From IMG/VR virus record IMGVR_UViG_2663762926_000008: a stretch of 9,671 bases of DNA, one strand, 5' to 3'. Made by a program: the position numbers and the translations under genes. The notes beneath the pieces were generated by a model. It was given only the letters and a program-made list of their open reading frames with translations. It made no database searches and was not told the DNA's origin. This DNA comes from a virus. Lineage: Duplodnaviria; Heunggongvirae; Uroviricota; Caudoviricetes. Every line of letters starts with the position of its first letter. Within the stretch, counting starts at the first letter, position 1. Shown here one piece after another: positions 1-9,671 of this stretch.

Positions 1-2
1 GA

Positions 3-1666
3 ATGGGTAAAGGCAGCAGTAAGGGGCATACCCCGCGCGAAGCGAAGGACAACCTGAAGTCCACGCAGCTGCTGAGTGTGATCGATGCCATCAGCGAAGG
101 GCCGGTTGAAGGTCCGGTGGATGGATTAAAAAGCGTGCTGCTGAACAGTACGCCGGTGCTGGACAGTGAGGGGAATACCAACATCTCCGGCGTCACGGTG
201 GTGTTCCGGGCAGGTGAGCAGGAGCAGTCACCGCCGGAGGGATTTGAATCCTCCGGCTCCGAGACGGTGCTGGGTACGGAAGTGAAATATGACACGCCGA
301 TCACCCGGACCATCACGTCGGCAAACATTGACCGACTGCGTTTTACCTTCGGTGTACAGGCACTGGTGGAAACCACCTCAAAGGGAGACAGGAATCCGTC
401 TGAAGTTCGCCTGCTGGTTCAGATACAGCGTAACGGTGGCTGGGTGACGGAAAAAGACATCACCATTAAGGGCAAAACCACCTCGCAGTATCTGGTCTCG
501 GTGGTGGTGGATAACCTGCCTCCGCGCCCGTTCAGTATCCGGATGCGCAGGATGACACCGGACAGCACCACAGACCAGCTGCAGAACAAAACGCTCTGGT
601 CGTCATACACCGAAATCATCGATGTGAAACAGTGCTACCCGAACACGGCACTGGTCGGCGTACAGGTGGATTCGGAGCAGTTCGGCAGCCAGCAGGTGAG
701 CCGTAATTATCATCTTCGCGGGCGCATTCTGCAGGTGCCGTCGAACTATAATCCGCAGACGCGGCAATACAGCGGTATCTGGGACGGAACGTTAAAACCG
801 GCATACAGCAACAACATGGCCTGGTGTCTGTGGGATATGCTGACCCATCCGCGCTATGGCATGGGGAAACGTCTTGGTGCGGCAGATGTGGATAAATGGG
901 CGCTGTATGTCATCGGCCAGTACTGTGACCAGTCGGTGCCGGACGGCTTTGGCAGCACGGAGCCGCGCATCACCTGTAATGCCTGGCTGACCACACAGCG
1001 CAAGGCGTGGGATGTGCTCAGTGATTTCTGCTCGGCGATGCGCTGTATGCCGGTATGGAACGGGCAGACGCTGACGTTCGTGCAGGACCGACAGTCGGAT
1101 AAGGTGTGGGCCTATAACCGCAGTAATGTGGTGATGCCGGATGATGGCGCGCCGTTCCGCTACAGTTTCAGCGCCCTGAAAGACCGCCATAATGCCGTTG
1201 AGGTGAACTGGATTGACCCGGATAACGGCTGGGAGACGGCGACAGAGCTTGTGGAGGATACGCAGGCCATTGTCCGTTACGGTCGTAACGTCACGAAGAT
1301 GGATGCCTTTGGCTGTACCAGCCGGGGGCAGGCACACCGCGCCGGGCTGTGGCTGATTAAAACGGAACTGCTGGAGACGCAGACCGTGGATTTCAGCGTG
1401 GGTGCTGAAGGGCTTCGTCATGTACCGGGCGATGTCATTGAAATCTGCGATGATGACTATGCCGGTATCCGCACCGGCGGGCGCGTGCTGGCGGTGAACA
1501 GCCAGACCCGGACGCTGACGCTCGACCGTGAAATCACGCTGCCATCCTCCGGCACCACGCTGATAAGCCTGGTTGACGGGCAGGGGAATCCGGTCAGCGT
1601 GGAGGTCCAGTCCGTCACCGACGGCGTGAAGGTAAAAGTGAGCCGTGTTCCTGACGGTGTTGCTGA
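3..1666 (+). CDS. J: Host-specificity / central tail-fibre protein J (lambda gpJ family), copy A: 5' fragment with a real ATG start, codons 1-554, truncated at the N at 1667
   Basis: ATG at 3-5; translation [34 protein letters not shown]... matches the lambda gpJ N-terminus as I recall it; frame open to 1666. The ORF-track end at 1706 is an artefact of reading through the N into frame-shifted copy B. Only 2 nt lie upstream, so no RBS is visible. Confidence 0.9.
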
Positions 1667-1667
1667 N
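1667..1667. other. Single N at the junction between J copy A and copy B (probable assembly or scaffold join)
   Basis: The sequence on the 5' side corresponds to J nucleotide about 1664; the sequence on the 3' side restarts at J nucleotide about 17. The reading frame changes across the N. Confidence 0.8.
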
Positions 1668-3333
1668 GTAAGGGGCATACCCCGCGCGAAGCGAAGGACA
1701 ACCTGAAGTCCACGCAGCTGCTGAGTGTGATCGATGCCATCAGCGAAGGGCCGGTTGAAGGTCCGGTGGATGGATTAAAAAGCGTGCTGCTGAACAGTAC
1801 GCCGGTGCTGGACAGTGAGGGGAATACCAACATCTCCGGCGTCACGGTGGTGTTCCGGGCAGGTGAGCAGGAGCAGTCACCGCCGGAGGGATTTGAATCC
1901 TCCGGCTCCGAGACGGTGCTGGGTACGGAAGTGAAATATGACACGCCGATCACCCGGACCATCACGTCGGCAAACATTGACCGACTGCGTTTTACCTTCG
2001 GTGTACAGGCACTGGTGGAAACCACCTCAAAGGGAGACAGGAATCCGTCTGAAGTTCGCCTGCTGGTTCAGATACAGCGTAACGGTGGCTGGGTGACGGA
2101 AAAAGACATCACCATTAAGGGCAAAACCACCTCGCAGTATCTGGCCTCGGTGGTGGTGGATAACCTGCCGCCGCGCCCGTTTAATATCCGGATGCGCAGA
2201 ATGACGCCGGACAGCACCACAGACCAGCTGCAGAACAAAACGCTCTGGTCGTCATACACCGAAATCATCGATGTGAAACAGTGCTACCCGAACACGGCAC
2301 TGGTCGGCGTACAGGTGGATTCGGAGCAGTTCGGCAGCCAGCAGGTGAGCCGTAATTATCATCTTCGCGGGCGCATTCTGCAGGTGCCGTCGAACTATAA
2401 TCCGCAGACGCGGCAATACAGCGGTATCTGGGACGGAACGTTAAAACCGGCATACAGCAACAACATGGCCTGGTGTCTGTGGGATATGCTGACCCACCCG
2501 CGCTACGGCATGGGGAAACGTCTTGGTGCGGCGGATGTGGACAAATGGGCGCTGTATGTCATCGGCCAGTACTGTGACCAGTCGGTGCCGGACGGCTTTG
2601 GCAGCACGGAGCCGCGCATCACCTGTAATGCCTGGCTGACCACACAGCGCAAGGCGTGGGATGTGCTCAGTGATTTCTGCTCGGCGATGCGCTGTATGCC
2701 GGTATGGAACGGGCAGACGCTGACGTTCGTGCAGGACCGACAGTCGGATAAGGTGTGGGCCTATAACCGCAGTAATGTGGTGATGCCGGATGATGGCGCG
2801 CCGTTCCGCTACAGTTTCAGCGCCCTGAAAGACCGCCATAATGCCGTTGAGGTGAACTGGATTGACCCGGATAACGGCTGGGAGACGGCGACAGAGCTTG
2901 TGGAGGATACGCAGGCCATTGTCCGTTACGGTCGTAACGTCACGAAGATGGATGCCTTTGGCTGTACCAGCCGGGGGCAGGCACACCGCGCCGGGCTGTG
3001 GCTGATTAAAACGGAACTGCTGGAGACGCAGACCGTGGATTTCAGCGTGGGTGCTGAAGGGCTTCGTCATGTACCGGGCGATGTCATTGAAATCTGCGAT
3101 GATGACTATGCCGGTATCCGCACCGGCGGGCGCGTGCTGGCGGTGAACAGCCAGACCCGGACGCTGACGCTCGACCGTGAAATCACGCTGCCATCCTCCG
3201 GCACCACGCTGATAAGCCTGGTTGACGGGCAGGGGAATCCGGTCAGCGTGGAGGTCCAGTCCGTCACCGACGGCGTGAAGGTAAAAGTGAGCCGTGTTCC
3301 TGACGGTGTTGCTGAATACAGCGTGTGGGGGCT
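1668..3333 (+). CDS. J: J protein copy B: fragment from codon 6/7 to about codon 561, truncated at both ends, a distinct allele from copy A
   Basis: Position 1668 onward re-aligns to window position 19 onward (offset 1649), in a different frame from copy A (codon starts at positions of the form 3k+2). It is nearly identical to A but with clustered substitutions, e.g. 496 t vs 2145 c (Val to Ala) and agt 534-536 vs aat 2183-2185 (Ser to Asn), plus several silent changes around 2165-2560. The ORF-track entry 1727..3397 starts at an internal GTG and ends at a stop created after the N at 3334. Confidence 0.85.
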
Positions 3334-3334
3334 N
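3334..3334. other. Single N at the junction between J copy B and copy C (probable assembly or scaffold join)
   Basis: The 5' side corresponds to window-equivalent position 1684; the 3' side restarts at the equivalent of position 35. The reading frame changes across the N. Confidence 0.8.
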
Positions 3335-6300
3335 GCGCGAAGCGAAGGACAACCTGAAGTCCACGCAGCTGCTGAGTGTGATCGATGCCATCAGTGAAGG
3401 GCCGGTTGAAGGTCCGGTGGATGGATTAAAAAGCGTGCTGCTGAACAGTACGCCGGTGCTGGACAATGAGGGGAATACCAACATCTCCGGCGTCACGGTG
3501 GTGTTCCGGGCAGGTGAGCAGGAGCAGTCACCGCCGGAGGGGTTTGAATCCTCCGGCTCCGAGACGGTGCTGGGTACGGAAGTGAAATATGACACGCCGA
3601 TCACCCGGACCATCACGTCGGCAAACATCGACCGTCTGCGCTTTACCTTCGGTGTACAGGCACTGGTGGAAACCACCTCAAAGGGAGACAGGAATCCGTC
3701 GGAAGTCCGCCTGCTGGTTCAGATACAGCGTAACGGTGGCTGGGTGACGGAAAAAGACATCACCATTAAGGGCAAAACCACCTCGCAGTATCTGGTCTCG
3801 GTGGTGGTGGATAACCTGCCTCCGCGCCCGTTCAGTATCCGGATGCGCAGGATGACACCGGACAGCACCACAGACCAGCTGCAGAACAAAACGCTCTGGT
3901 CGTCATACACCGAAATCATCGATGTGAAACAGTGCTACCCGAACACTGCACTGGTCGGCGTACAGGTGGACTCGGAGCAGTTCGGCAGCCAGCAGGTGAG
4001 TCGTAATTATCATCTTCGCGGGCGCATTCTGCAGGTGCCGTCGAACTATAACCCGCAGACGCGACAATACAGCGGTATCTGGGACGGAACGTTAAAACCA
4101 GCATACAGCAACAACATGGCCTGGTGTCTGTGGGATATGCTGACCCACCCGCGCTACGGCATGGGGAAACGTCTTGGTGCGGCGGATGTGGACAAATGGG
4201 CGCTGTATGTCATCGGCCAGTACTGCGACCAGTCAGTGCCGGACGGCTTTGGCGGCACGGAGCCGCGCATCACCTGTAATGCGTACCTGACCACACAGCG
4301 CAAGGCGTGGGATGTGCTCAGTGATTTCTGCTCGGCGATGCGCTGTATGCCGGTATGGAACGGGCAGACGCTGACGTTCGTGCAGGACCGACAGTCGGAT
4401 AAGGTGTGGGCCTATAACCGCAGTAATGTGGTGATGCCGGATGATGGCGCGCCGTTCCGCTACAGCTTCAGCGCCCTGAAAGACCGCCATAATGCCGTTG
4501 AGGTGAACTGGATTGACCCGGATAACGGCTGGGAGACGGCGACAGAGCTTGTGGAGGATACGCAGGCCATTGTCCGTTACGGTCGTAACGTCACGAAGAT
4601 GGATGCCTTTGGCTGTACCAGCCGGGGGCAGGCACACCGCGCCGGGCTGTGGCTGATTAAAACAGAACTGCTGGAAACGCAGACCGTGGACTTCAGCGTG
4701 GGCGCAGAAGGGCTTCGCCATGTGCCGGGCGATGTCATTGAAATCTGTGATGATGACTATGCGGGTATCAGCATCGGCGGGCGCGTGCTGGCGGTAAACA
4801 GCCAGACCCGGACGCTGACGCTCGACCGTGAAATCACGCTGCCATCCTCCGGCACCACGCTGATAAGCCTGGTTGACGGGCAGGGGAATCCGGTCAGCGT
4901 GGAGGTCCAGTCCGTCACCGACGGCGTGAAGGTAAAAGTGAGCCGTGTTCCTGACGGTGTTGCTGAATACAGCGTGTGGGGGCTGAAGCTGCCGACGCTG
5001 CACCAGCGATTGTTCCGCTGCGTGAGTATCCGTGAGAACGACGACGGCACGTATGCCATCACCGCCGTGCAGCATGTGCCGGAAAAAGAAGCCATCGTGG
5101 ATAACGGGGCGCACTTTGACGGCGACCAGAGCGGCACGGTGAATGGTGTCACGCCGCCAGCGGTGCAGCACCTGACTGCCGAAGTCACCGCAGACAGCGG
5201 GGAATATCAGGTGCTGGCGCGCTGGGACACGCCGAAGGTGGTGAAGGGCGTGAGCTTCCTGCTCCGTCTGACCGTAACAGCGGATGACGGCAGTGAGCGG
5301 CTGGTCAGCACGGCCCGGACGACGGAAACCACTTACCGCTTCACACAACTGGCGCTGGGGAACTACAGGCTGACAGTCCGGGCAGTAAATGCGTGGGGGC
5401 AGCAGGGCGATCCGGCGTCGGTATCGTTCCGGATTGCCGCACCGGCAGCGCTGTCGCGGATTGAGCTGACGCCGGGCTATTTTCAGATAACCGCCACGCC
5501 GCATCTTGCGGTTTATGATCCGACGGTACAGTTTGAGTTCTGGTTCTCGGAAAAGCGGATTGCGGATATCAGGCAGGTTGAAACCACAGCACGCTATCTT
5601 GGCACGGCGCTGTACTGGATAGCCGCCAGTATCAATATCAAACCGGGCCATGATTATTACTTTTATATCCGCAGTGTGAACACCGTTGGCAAATCGGCAT
5701 TCGTGGAGGCTGTTGGTCAGCCGAGTGATGATGCATCCGGTTATCTGGATTTTTTCAAAGGCGAGATAGGGAAAACCCATCTGGCTCAGGAGCTGTGGAC
5801 GCAGATTGATAACGGTCAGCTTGCGCCTGACCTGGCTGAAATCAGGACGTCCATTACGGATGTCAGCAATGAAATCACGCAGACCGTGGACTTCAGCGTG
5901 GGCGCAGAAGGGCTTCGCCATGTGCCGGGCGATGTCATTGAAATCTGTGATGATGACTATGCCGGTATCCGCACCGGCGGGCGCGTGCTGGCGGTAAACA
6001 GCCAGACCCGGACGCTGACGCTCGACCGTGAAATCACGCTGCCATCCTCCGGTACCATGCTGATAAGCCTGGTTGACGGAAGTGGCAATCCGGTCAGCGT
6101 GGAGGTTCAGTCCGTCACCGACGGCGTGAAGGTGAAAGTGAGCCGTGTTCCTGACGGCGTTGCTGAATACAGCGTGTGGGGGCTGAAGCTGCCGACGCTG
6201 CACCAGCGATTGTTCCGCTGCGTGAGTATCCGTGAGAACGACGACGGCACGTATGCCATCACCGCCGTGCAGCATGTGCCGGAAAAAGAAGCCATCGTGG

Positions 6301-7834
6301 ATAACGGGGCGCACTTTGACGGCGACCAGAGCGGCACGGTGAATGGTGTCACGCCGCCAGCGGTGCAGCACCTGACTGCCGAAGTCACCGCAGACAGCGG
6401 GGAATATCAGGTGCTGGCGCGCTGGGACACGCCGAAGGTGGTGAAGGGGGTGAGCTTTATGCTTCGCCTGACCGTGGCAGCGGATGACGGCAGTGAGCGG
6501 CTGGTCAGCACGGCCCGGACGACGGAAACCACTTACCGCTTCACACAACTGGCGCTGGGGAACTACAGGCTGACAGTCCGGGCAGTAAATGCGTGGGGGC
6601 AGCAGGGCGATCCGGCGTCGGTATCGTTCCGGATTGCCGCACCGGCAGCGCTGTCGCGGATTGAGCTGACGCCGGGCTATTTTCAGATAACCGCCACGCC
6701 GCATCTTGCGGTTTATGATCCGACGGTACAGTTTGAGTTCTGGTTCTCGGAAAAGCGGATTGCGGATATCAGGCAGGTTGAAACCACAGCACGCTATCTT
6801 GGCACGGCGCTGTACTGGATAGCCGCCAGTATCAATATCAAACCGGGCCATGATTATTACTTTTATATCCGCAGTGTGAACACCGTTGGCAAATCGGCAT
6901 TCGTGGAGGCTGTTGGTCAGCCGAGTGATGATGCATCCGGTTATCTGGATTTTTTCAAAGGCGAGATAGGGAAAACCCATCTGGCTCAGGAGCTGTGGAC
7001 GCAGATTGATAACGGTCAGCTTGCGCCTGACCTGGCTGAAATCAGGACGTCCATTACGGATGTCAGCAATGAAATCACGCAGACCGTCAATAAGAAACTG
7101 GAAGACCAGAGTGCGGCAATTCAGCAGATACAGAAGGTTCAGGTTGATACAAATAATAACCTGAACAGCATGTGGGCTGTGAAGCTGCAGCAGATGCAGG
7201 ACGGACGCCTTTATATCGCGGGTATTGGTGCCGGTATTGAGAACACCCCTGACGGCATGCAGAGTCAGGTGCTGCTGGCGGCGGACAGGATTGCGATGGT
7301 TAATCCTGCGAATGGCAACACAAAACCGATGTTTGTTGGTCAGGGCGATCAGATATTCATGAACGACGTGTTCCTGAAACGCCTGACGGCCCCCACCATT
7401 ACCAGCGGTGGAAATCCATCGGCATTTTCCCTGACTCCGGACGGAAAGCTGACCGCTAAAAATGCGGATATCAGTGGCAGTGTGAATGCGAACGCCGGGA
7501 CGCTCAACAATGTCACGGTAAATGAAAACTGTACGATTAAGGGCATGCTGGAGGCGACTCAGGTCAGAGGTGACTTCGTTAAAGCTGTATCCAAATCATT
7601 TCCGAAACAGGCTGGTACGTGGGGTAACACGGAAACACCAAACGGGACGGTTACAGTCACCATAAGCGATGATCATAACTTTGACCGCCAGATTATTATT
7701 CCGCCCATTATTTTTAACGGTATAGCGTATGACGATCCGGGGAGCGGAAATAACCCAGGAGGCACGCGATACACGGGTTATGGTTTTGAAGTTCGCAAAA
7801 ACGGCGTATTAATCGCATCCAGAGAAACTAAAGG
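3335..7834 (+). CDS. J: J protein copy C: from codon 11/12 to near the C-terminus, containing an in-frame 1200-bp tandem duplication; truncated at the 3' end by the N-run at 7835-7839
   Basis: Position 3335 onward re-aligns to window position 35 onward (offset 3300) in frame 0, with no stop until after the N-run. Allele-specific changes relative to A and B include aat 3465-3467 (Ser to Asn), ggc ggc 4251-4256 (GS to GG) and gcg tac 4281-4286 (AW to AY). It continues past where A and B stop, into a region translating as two beta-rich modules (about 5150-5730) that I read as fibronectin-III-like, then a distal module and a C-terminal region. The ORF-track boundaries 3294..7853 are artefactual at both ends. 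Confidence 0.85.
4677..5876 (+). repeat. Tandem direct repeat unit 1 (1200 bp, 400 codons, in frame) inside J copy C
   Basis: 4677-5876 aligns base-for-base with 5877-7076 at an offset of exactly 1200. I count about 20 substitutions, all between 4763 and 5277; 4677-4762 and 5278-5876 are identical between units. The unit begins with acgcagaccgt (encoding TQTV). Confidence 0.9.
5877..7087 (+). repeat. Tandem direct repeat unit 2 (5877-7076) plus the terminal 11-bp microhomology copy acgcagaccgt (7077-7087)
   Basis: Same alignment as unit 1. The 11-mer acgcagaccgt occurs at 4677-4687, 5877-5887 and 7077-7087, each time in the same codon phase (T-Q-T-V). Unique sequence resumes at 7088 (caataagaaactg...). 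Confidence 0.9.
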
Positions 7835-7839
7835 NNNNN
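7835..7839. other. Run of 5 N at the junction between J copy C (near its 3' end) and copy D (mid-gene) (probable assembly or scaffold join)
   Basis: The 5' side ends ...agagaaactaaagg, equivalent to 9592-9605 in copy D; the 3' side restarts at the equivalent of 5984 (cgtgctggcggtaaacagccag). Confidence 0.8.
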
Positions 7840-9671
7840 CGTGCTGGCGGTAAACAGCCAGACCCGGACGCTGACGCTCGACCGTGAAATCACGCTGCCA
7901 TCCTCCGGTACCATGCTGATAAGCCTGGTTGACGGAAGTGGCAATCCGGTCAGCGTGGAGGTTCAGTCCGTCACCGACGGCGTGAAGGTGAAAGTGAGCC
8001 GTGTTCCTGACGGCGTTGCTGAATACAGCGTGTGGGGGCTGAAGCTGCCGACGTTGCGCCAGCGCCTGTTCCGCTGTGTGAGTATCCGTGAGAACGATGA
8101 CGGCACGTATGCCATCACTGCCGTGCAGCATGTACCGGAAAAAGAAGCCATCGTGGATAACGGGGCGCACTTTGACGGCGACCAGAGCGGCACGGTGAAT
8201 GGTGTCACGCCGCCAGCGGTGCAGCACCTGACTGCCGAAGTCACCGCAGACAGCGGGGAATATCAGGTGCTGGCGCGCTGGGACACGCCGAAGGTGGTGA
8301 AGGGGGTGAGCTTTATGCTTCGCCTGACCGTGGCAGCGGATGACGGCAGTGAGCGGCTGGTCAGCACGGCCCGGACGACGGAAACCACATACCGCTTCAC
8401 GCAACTGGCGCTGGGACGGTACACGCTGACAGTCCGGGCGGTAAATGCCTGGGGACAGCAGGGCGATCCGGCGTCGGTATCGTTCAGGATTGCCGCACCG
8501 GTAGCACCGTCGCGGATTGAGCTGACGCCGGGCTATTTTCAGATAACTGCCACGCCGCATCTTGCGGTTTATGATCCGACGGTACAGTTTGAGTTCTGGT
8601 TCTCGGAAACGCGGATTACCGATATCAGGCAGGTTGAAACCACAGCACGCTATCTTGGCACGGCGCTGTACTGGATAGCCGCCAGTATCAATATCAAACC
8701 GGGCCATGATTATTACTTTTATATCCGCAGTGTGAACACCGTTGGCAAATCGGCATTCGTGGAGGCCGTCGGTCGGGCGAGCGATGATGCGGAAGGTTAC
8801 CTGGATTTTTTCAAAGGCAAGATAACCGAATCCCATCTCGGTAAAGAGCTGCTGGAAAAAGTTGATCTGACGGAGGATAACGCCAGCAGACTGGATGAGT
8901 TTTCGAAAGAGTGGAAGGACGCTAACGATAAATGGAATGCGATGTGGGGCGTCAAAATTGAGCAGACCAAAGACGGCAAACATTATGTCGCGGGTATTGG
9001 CCTCAGCATGGAGGACACGGAGGAAGGCAAGCTGAGCCAGTTTCTGGTTGCCGCCAATCGTATCGCGTTTATTGACCCGGCAAACGGGAATGAAACGCCG
9101 ATGTTTGTGGCGCAGGGCAACCAGATATTCATGAACGACGTGTTCCTGAAGCGCCTGACAGCCCCCGCCATTACCAGCGGTGGCAGTCCTCCGGTATTTT
9201 CCCTGACATCAGACGGAAAGCTGACCGCTAAAAATGCGGATATCAGTGGTAGTGTGAATGCGAACTCAGGAACGCTCAACAATGTCACGATTAACCAGAA
9301 CTGTACGATTAAGGGCATGCTGGAGGCGACCCAGGTCAGAGGGGATTTCGTTAAAGCTGTATCAAAAGCCTTCCCGAAAAAAGTCGGTACGTGGGGTAAC
9401 ACGGAAACACCAGACGGTACGGTTACAGTCACCATCAGCGATGATCATAACTTTGACCGCCAGATTATTATTCCGCCCATTATTTTTAACGGTATAGCGT
9501 ATGACGATCCGGGGAGCGGAAATAACCCGGGAGGCACGCGATACACGGGTTATGGTTTTGAAGTTCGCAAAAACGGCGTATTAATCGCATCCAGAGAAAC
9601 TAAAGGGGCCATTCCCGGTAGTTACAGTGCAGTTATTGATATGCCTAGTGGTGGTGGTAGCGTCACTCTGG
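7840..9671 (+). CDS. J: J protein copy D: central to C-terminal fragment, open at both ends and running off the window; a lambda-like distal module followed by a non-lambda C-terminal region
   Basis: Position 7840 onward re-aligns to 5984 onward (offset 1856). My translation from 7841 is open to the end of the window: [36 protein letters not shown]...[114 protein letters not shown]...[22 protein letters not shown]. It is absent from the ORF track, presumably because it has no stop in the window. The distal module matches lambda J as I recall it. Confidence 0.85.

Follow-up and report, generated by a model that had tools for sequence, protein, structure and literature searches.

A contig of chained J gene fragments in a Shigella sonnei draft assembly, very probably an artefact of scaffolding and gap filling

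Does a stretch of DNA in which the lambdoid tail gene J restarts again and again on one strand reflect a real gene arrangement, or was it made by an assembler? This question is raised by the window studied here (the whole stretch that was analysed, 9,671 nt), which is the complete contig CXFU01000239.1 of assembly GCA_001250415.1, made from run ERR042777 (Shigella sonnei, sample ERS025878). Page et al. 2016 enter CXFU01000001-387 in their supplement as Shigella sonnei, ERR042777; a literature search for ERP000568 gave no match. We conclude that the window very probably arose when scaffolding and gap filling were applied to prophage J genes present in several copies, and that it does not show how genes are really arranged.

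Five pieces of J and four joins

The reference for mapping was J of phage ev099 (3498 nt; L001 2969-6466). The window is J sequence throughout, since all bases except the N residues and two leading nucleotides align to J genes at 85-98% identity, and the flanking non-J genes (I, lom) are absent. A sequence-only reading had taken it for a concatenation of four partial J copies; the mapping confirms the concatenation but resolves five overlapping pieces with four joins, because 3335-7834, counted there as one partial copy, holds a further restart, free of N, at 5877-5887. The features are as follows.

3-1666, + strand: J piece 1, J nt 1-1664 (aa 1-554), window frame 3
1667, no strand: join 1, single N, J1664 to J17, flanks GGTGTTGCTGA / GTAAGGGGCATA
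1668-3333, + strand: J piece 2, J nt 17-1682, window frame 2
3334, no strand: join 2, single N, J1682 to J33, flanks GTGTGGGGGCT / GCGCGAAGCGAA
3335-5887, + strand: J piece 3a, J nt 33-2585, window frame 3, 97.5% identical to ev099 J, ungapped
5877-5887, + strand: join 3, without N, 11-mer ACGCAGACCGT common to J1375 and J2575 (J2585 to J1375)
5877-7834, + strand: J piece 3b, J nt 1375-3332, window frame 3
7835-7839, no strand: join 4, NNNNN, J3332 to J1482
7840-9671, + strand: J piece 4, from another 3' allele, J nt 1482 to about 3397; window frame 2 (7840-8856 is J1482-2497 and 8942-9671 is J2668-3397)

The non-ACGT bases of the window (one N at 1667, one at 3334 and five at 7835-7839; seven in total) all lie at joins 1, 2 and 4, where the + strand jumps back inside J, and this bears out the earlier remark that N stands exactly at the restart points. 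The remark that all pieces lie on the + strand holds as well, the self-comparison of the window giving no minus-strand match. Restarts in different frames had also been described; the frame does change at every N, but the four N-bounded segments use just two frames (3, 2, 3, 2). Single N residues in SSPACE and GapFiller output stand for gaps that were filled yet not closed. The join coordinates are all unlike, and the three 5' pieces recur in the window self-comparison with a period of ~1650 nt.

Piece 1 begins at the J start codon ATG, 2 nt inside the contig end, and aligns ungapped to ev099 J at 96.2% identity (97.2% for its best complete-genome match), with Pfam matches to FNIII-A_GpJ and Phage-tail_3. 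Piece 3b ends 166 nt before the J stop codon, and the open reading frame of piece 4, which matches natural E. coli J genes in one unbroken alignment at 98.4%, runs to the contig end. Pieces 1 and 2 are equal in length (1666 nt each), and per-round GapFiller extension caps or equal-length graph arms are candidate models for this.

The segments bounded by N (S1 to S4) are different alleles with clustered differences, as the first reading had said. Identity is 99.4% between S1 and S2, 97.7% between S1 and S3, and 94-95% between S3 and S4, where it drops to 85% towards the 3' end; the 10 differences between S1 and S2 are confined to two clusters, J494-555 and J846-891. Over J1494-2573 every variant of piece 3b is shared with piece 3a or piece 4, whose haplotypes it follows by turns. 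Two haplotypes nearly suffice for all pieces, and J1432-1502 requires three. Natural J alleles are mosaic too, and mosaicism alone is no proof of chimerism.

The join without N and the called genes

Segment 3335-7834 is 4500 nt long, which exceeds any J gene. Within it, 4677-5887 and 5877-7087 are copies of 98.3% identity at an offset of 1200 nt, differing at 20 of 1211 sites. At join 3, J nt 2585 runs into J nt 1375 (an example of the spanning sequence is AATGAAATCACGCAGACCGTGGACTTCAGC), giving an in-frame duplication of 1200 nt (400 aa), and the 11-mer shared there is one of only 8 11-mers repeated within J. This duplication is false and was made by join 3, and because of it there are two matches each to Ig_J, Ig_J_second and Phage-tail_3 in 3336-7832. 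An exact 40-mer over the join had no match in genome_contigs, viral_contigs or metagenome_contigs, three collections that do not include the source assembly. A protein search with the 104-aa peptide spanning the join gave no high-identity match over its full length (at best 68% coverage at 68% identity and 87% coverage at 49% identity). The scored proteins were all of at most 179 aa, and the long product of the window itself was absent from the results, which makes this search insensitive to full-length proteins.

The joins also shape the open reading frames. Those of 567, 556 and 1519 aa are join products, and the J stop codon (J3498) lies beyond the end of every piece. Gene lengths and gene calls from this contig are unsafe, in line with the earlier warning on gene content and protein length. 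On the opposite strand lies a long shadow of J.

4233-6980, - strand: antisense shadow ORF of 915 aa, codon-for-codon with J and extended by the false duplication

No TTA, CTA or TCA sense codon occurs from 4233 to 7596. Further antisense shadow ORFs are found at 2441-3676, 7778-8983 and 8983-9435, and the gene caller placed minus-strand genes at the last two; none of the four antisense ORFs is a gene. The spurious products that were called are three J-like proteins (567, 556 and 1491 aa) and two from the antisense strand (401 and 150 aa).

Origin of the chain

The Sanger pipeline behind this assembly runs Velvet, then 16 rounds of SSPACE down to 5 linking read pairs, and then 120 rounds of GapFiller; its authors note that these greedy tools 'can lead to false joins', and their test genomes had 4-10 misassemblies each (PMC5320598). 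GapFiller closes a gap when the overlap is at least 10 nt (PMC3446322), and the 11-nt overlap at join 3 fits this rule. Chaining or collapse of lambdoid J genes by an assembler, which the first reading had proposed, is thus supported by the provenance of the contig, by the 11-nt join, by the absence of the joins from complete genomes, by a sister contig and by the unequal 5' joins.

A search of 5,426 complete genomes, all of E. coli and none of S. sonnei, gave best matches that lack each of the four joins in window order. For join 3, the match breaks at 5887 in all complete genomes. For join 2, no window-order match stood among the matches listed, which were not inspected base by base. Records covering at least 80% of the join query numbered 12, 12, 1 and 8 for joins 1, 2, 3 and 4, and inspection took in the top example each for joins 1, 3 and 4 and none for join 2. 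These top records (L003, L005 and L004, respectively) were considered as natural joins and rejected: they are J deletion pseudogenes with the halves in natural order, spanning 560-1066 nt instead of about 400. The apparent covering matches arise because such deletions bring distant J segments near each other.

The sister contig, CXFR01000279.1 (S. sonnei, same study), is likewise J sequence alone with single-N restarts. It shares 100% identical blocks with the window, joined at other J coordinates, and continues unbroken through J2575-2595. J-only contigs with single N bases appear to be recurrent in this dataset.

These results suggest how the window may have formed. The sequenced isolate very probably carries several lambdoid prophages or prophage remnants with J genes 85-99% identical, too alike for short paired reads to separate. 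Velvet would have split the J region into allele-specific contigs, SSPACE, accepting as few as 5 linking read pairs, would have set these parallel contigs in series, and GapFiller would have greedily extended the contig ends via J-family reads in the course of its 120 rounds. Where two extensions shared at least 10 nt, as with the 11-mer at J1375/J2575, the gap would have been 'closed' and the false 1200-nt in-frame duplication created; where extensions did not overlap, 1 or 5 N would have been left. We infer in this way the step and tool responsible for each join. The identical length of pieces 1 and 2 is not explained by this scheme and was counted against it.

The alleles chained by the assembler could also have come from a mixed or contaminated multi-strain sample, since the first reading had named a mixed population beside several prophages of one genome as their source, and the presence of up to three local haplotypes would agree with this. 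The sister isolate was sequenced independently, however, and its 100% identical blocks cover several pieces, which places the alleles in the lineage itself. Moreover, J-like places number 3-4 per complete E. coli genome at the median and reach 14, so multi-copy J within one genome is normal. Hence a mixed sample is improbable, and paralogous prophage copies in one genome are favoured as the allele source because of the sister isolate's identical blocks.

A real tandem array of J fragments, produced when a decayed prophage region was amplified by duplication, with N as low-quality positions, would account for the one orientation shared by all pieces, for the ~1650-nt period of the three 5' pieces and for the 11-nt in-frame microhomology at 5877-5887, of a kind often seen in real illegitimate duplications. 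Amplification of one duplication is not expected to give J1664 to J17 at one 5' join and J1682 to J33 at the next; these joins are unlike, which a single real tandem duplication would not give. The copies are also diverged (units differ by 0.6-6%, and identities range over 85-99.4%), every join but one is marked by N, unique flanks are lacking, no join was met in window order among the best complete-genome matches, and the sister isolate joins identical allele blocks elsewhere, which together leave a real array highly improbable.

It might still be asked whether the 1200-nt in-frame duplication in 3335-7834 alone is real and the N-marked joins are artefacts, in which case the J protein would have a second set of Phage-tail_3 C-terminal, Ig_J and Ig_J_second domains. 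Join 3 carries no N, the frame is preserved and the duplicate domains are all intact, and a draft E. coli J protein (P0081/P0082) is likewise internally duplicated. The 11-nt overlap is, however, exactly what GapFiller accepts as closure; the two copies differ at the 20 sites given above, and the second follows by turns the haplotype of piece 3a and that of piece 4; the join is missing from the complete genomes and the three contig collections; and the sister contig passes straight through J2575-2595. A real duplication confined to this join thus has very little probability. Equally slight is the chance that at least one join of any kind is real, the likeliest being this duplication at 5877-5887; if true, it would mean an S. 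sonnei prophage J tail-tip protein of ~1,530 aa whose Ig-domain block is duplicated, or a genuine J-fragment array. IS elements at the joins, considered as S. sonnei is IS-rich, are ruled out by the mapping of all bases to J.

Significance and comparison with known systems

The structure of the window has no biological significance, and its importance is one of data hygiene. GCA_001250415.1 is public and belongs to thousands of assemblies from the same Sanger pipeline. Spurious J entries of this type can inflate pangenomes and distort statistics of J length and domain count, and they can make a receptor-binding protein of interest in phage host-range work seem to carry 'domain duplications' that are false. 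J-only contigs with single N could feasibly be screened out automatically.

At the level of its parts, the window resembles lambda gpJ/TipJ: FNIII-A_GpJ, Phage-tail_3, Ig_J, Ig_J_second, Phage_Tail_Tip and Ig_GpJ_C follow in normal order within the pieces, and all six Pfam families score above the Pfam cut-offs across them. A real J gene, however, is one ORF of ~3.4-3.5 kb (~1130-1165 aa) with a stop codon and lies between I and lom (downstream of K/I, upstream of lom/stf), whereas the window consists of five overlapping fragments without a J stop and without flanking genes. It shares with natural E. coli J deletion pseudogenes the bringing together of far-apart J segments; yet in those inspected (L003, L004, L005) the natural 5' to 3' order is kept and sequence is missing, while in the window the jumps run backward and sequence is repeated. 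Microhomology-mediated tandem duplication is similar in its head-to-tail orientation and in the 11-nt microhomology at one join, but the window departs from a genuine tandem duplication in its unequal join coordinates, its diverged copies, its N at joins and a structure that neither closed genomes nor the sister isolate reproduce. With false joins made by SSPACE and GapFiller (PMC5320598, PMC3446322) the window has in common the pipeline, the N at joins and a closure by near-threshold overlap, and the sister assembly carries the same type of artefact. Compared with other scaffolder false joins, the window is of the same kind, and its chain is unusually long, with four joins in a 9.7-kb contig of one gene.

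Layout of the window on the J gene

We mapped the window onto J, the lambdoid tail-tip host-specificity gene (gpJ/TipJ), of phage ev099, which is 3498 nt long, carries the annotation ‘tail fibre protein’ and has gene I (tail assembly) on one side and lom on the other (Jn denotes nucleotide n of this gene). In Pfam the pieces showed the domain set of J, and the sole non-J sequence was 2 nt ahead of the first ATG.

Pieces of the window mapped to ev099 J
Piece 1: window 3-1666, + strand, J1-1664
Piece 2: window 1668-3333, + strand, J17-1682
Piece 3a: window 3335-5887, + strand, J33-2585
Piece 3b: window 5877-7834, + strand, J1375-3332
Piece 4, first part: window 7840-8856, + strand, J1482-2497
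Piece 4, second part: window 8942-9671, + strand, J2668-3397

The seven non-ACGT bases are an N at 1667 (join 1), an N at 3334 (join 2) and NNNNN at 7835-7839 (join 4). The reading frame switches at every N (frames 3, 2, 3, 2) and each N is a backward jump on the ev099 ruler, so the sequence-only reading was right that N bases mark restarts within J and that every piece lies on the + strand. It had counted four copies; the window instead holds five J pieces and four joins, the extra jump lying without any N inside 3335-7834. This segment of 4500 nt exceeds any J gene, and within it 4677-5887 recurs exactly 1200 nt further on, at 5877-7087, with 98.3% identity. Join 3 falls on the 11-mer ACGCAGACCGT, one of only eight 11-mers repeated within J, which is naturally present at J1375 and J2575 (peptide TQTV), and its product is a 400-aa in-frame duplication inside a 1519-aa ORF.

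Pieces 1 and 2 (window 1-1666 and 1668-3333) are each exactly 1666 nt with both ends offset by 18 nt in J, and piece 3 starts another 16 nt further into J than piece 2. The equal size and 18-nt shift suggest a mechanical rule or process in the assembler; none of the assembler models that we tried accounts for the pattern.

Divergence among the J copies is 0.6-6% and reaches 15% in the 3′ part, which binds the receptor. Up to five copies overlap, showing two haplotypes in nearly every 30-nt stretch, and J1432-1502 requires three. Differences between pieces 1 and 2 are confined to two clusters (J494-555 and J846-891), at each of which one of the two agrees with piece 3a, and piece 3b over J1494-2573 has no variant of its own when set against pieces 3a and 4 and alternates blockwise between their haplotypes. 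The copies are thus non-identical with mosaic, clustered differences, as had been claimed. Such a pattern fits walks through reads of two or three paralogous J genes, as support and not as proof, since J alleles are mosaic in nature too. Piece 4 matched natural E. coli J genes as one unbroken piece, end to end, at 98.4%, and the best match of piece 1 among ∼15,000 J places was 97.2%. Within piece 4, 85 nt (8857-8941) gave no alignment to ev099 J, and 8942-9671 is only 85% identical to both ev099 and piece 3b; allelic mosaicism of this sort is normal for the receptor-binding end of J.

Joins in finished genomes and in a sister contig

Queries of ∼400 nt around each join were compared with 5,426 complete E. 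coli genomes, which hold a median of 2-4 J-like places each (up to 14). Each query half matched in ∼4,450-4,550 of these genomes, and no record among the matches listed held any of the four joins contiguously; for join 3, matches end exactly at 5887 (query 1-208, 100% identity). The few records that seemingly covered at least 80% of a query were two pieces merged by the search tool and spread over 560-1066 nt. As natural versions of joins 1, 3 and 4 we rejected the top covering matches (L003, L005 and L004, respectively), which are J pseudogenes with the halves in natural order, opposite to that of the window.

Natural J pseudogenes on finished E. coli chromosomes, lacking large internal segments
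L003: 3126-5637
L004: 1520-4232
L005: 2758-4458

The L003 pseudogene jumps from ∼J640 to ∼J1470, and deletions of this kind can mimic junction matches in BLAST summaries.

A protein search with piece 4 returned P0090, labelled S. sonnei and encoded on CXFR01000279.1 (GCA_001261595.1), a contig from a sister isolate of the same study and pipeline. Its 5097 nt are J sequence only, with single Ns at 569, 1496 and 3209, every one a backward jump at coordinates other than those of the window: the chain runs J1306-1873, J985-1873 plus a 47-nt inverted stub (1449-1495 = J1914-1868), J1180-2975 and J1226-3113. Three of its blocks (177-568, 570-1267 and 3210-3666) are 100% identical to window 7840-8231, 2636-3333 and 2877-3333, respectively. 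Identical blocks with different joins indicate resident alleles chained differently in two assemblies, which is expected from an artefact and not from a genomic structure. J-only contigs with single-N restarts appear to recur in this dataset.

A real array of J fragments in the genome is therefore very unlikely, given that no contiguous join was found among the complete E. coli genome matches listed, that the two 5′ joins are unequal (J1664 to J17 versus J1682 to J33) and that the sister chain differs. That only the 1200-nt duplication is real is just as improbable, because the sister contig passes through J2575-2595 uninterrupted and an exact 40-mer across join 3 was absent from genome, viral and metagenome contig collections. 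A mixed sample as the source of the alleles deserves equally little credence, since the sister isolate carries identical blocks.

Assembly pipeline

The window is the entire contig CXFU01000239.1 (GCA_001250415.1; 9671 nt), the one contig found by exact look-up with the product of the first ORF. With SSPACE and GapFiller, a leftover single N would mean a gap that was filled, not closed. The series CXFU01000001-CXFU01000387 is listed by Page et al. 2016 (PMC5320598, supplement) as Shigella sonnei (study ERP000568, sample ERS025878, run ERR042777). In that pipeline reads are assembled by Velvet, scaffolded by SSPACE in 16 rounds down to five linking read pairs, and then treated with GapFiller v1.11 for 120 rounds; its authors state that these two greedy tools ‘can lead to false joins’, and report 4-10 misassemblies per test genome (PMC5320598). 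For GapFiller, closure of a gap requires an overlap of 10 nt or more between the two extensions and an insert whose length agrees with the estimated gap size (PMC3446322), a rule that would accept join 3 with its 11-nt overlap (5877-5887).

The window is very probably an artefact that arose when J genes present in multiple prophage copies were scaffolded and gap-filled in a short-read S. sonnei draft. The earlier proposal of assembler chaining gains support from the pipeline and its documented tool rules, the anatomy with its N and 11-mer joins, the failure to find the joins in closed E. coli genomes, and a sister contig in which the chain is not reproduced. Which tool made each join we infer; the alleles are presumably paralogues within one genome, favoured over contamination because the sister isolate shares identical blocks.

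Partial J proteins of 821 aa from E. coli, P0081 and P0082, belong to a contig of 4347 nt and run through J aa 533-993 and then J aa 749-1165. The resulting internal repeat of ∼245 aa on this short draft contig is probably another assembly artefact. A protein search returned many J fragments of 75-180 aa (e.g. P0002, P0007, P0010 and P0053) on 230-540-nt contigs, some in clusters of 1,000-2,000 members, among them one of S. sonnei with 1,534, which suggests that short-read assemblies of E. coli and Shigella routinely break within J.

Gene calls and comparison with known systems

The recorded gene calls on the contig (567, 556 and 1491 aa on the + strand; 401 and 150 aa antisense) are all spurious as gene models, bearing out the warning that gene content and protein lengths are unsafe here. 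In the last piece, two antisense ORFs were called as genes instead of J.

Antisense ORFs (up to 915 aa), codon-for-codon with J
4233-6980, - strand
2441-3676, - strand
7778-8983, - strand
8983-9435, - strand

These ORFs stay open because long stretches of J are free of TTA, CTA and TCA codons, with none in sense between 4233 and 7596. The importance of the window is practical only, in that spurious gene calls stand on record.

The phenomenon is an ordinary misassembly of known type, not a real feature. By domain content the window belongs to the gpJ/TipJ family, yet because of the joins it lacks the single ORF, stop codon and I-J-lom context expected of that family. Genuine tandem amplification has a repeated identical boundary, whereas the 5′ joins of the window differ, and natural J pseudogenes keep the order and miss sequence, whereas in the window the order is reversed.
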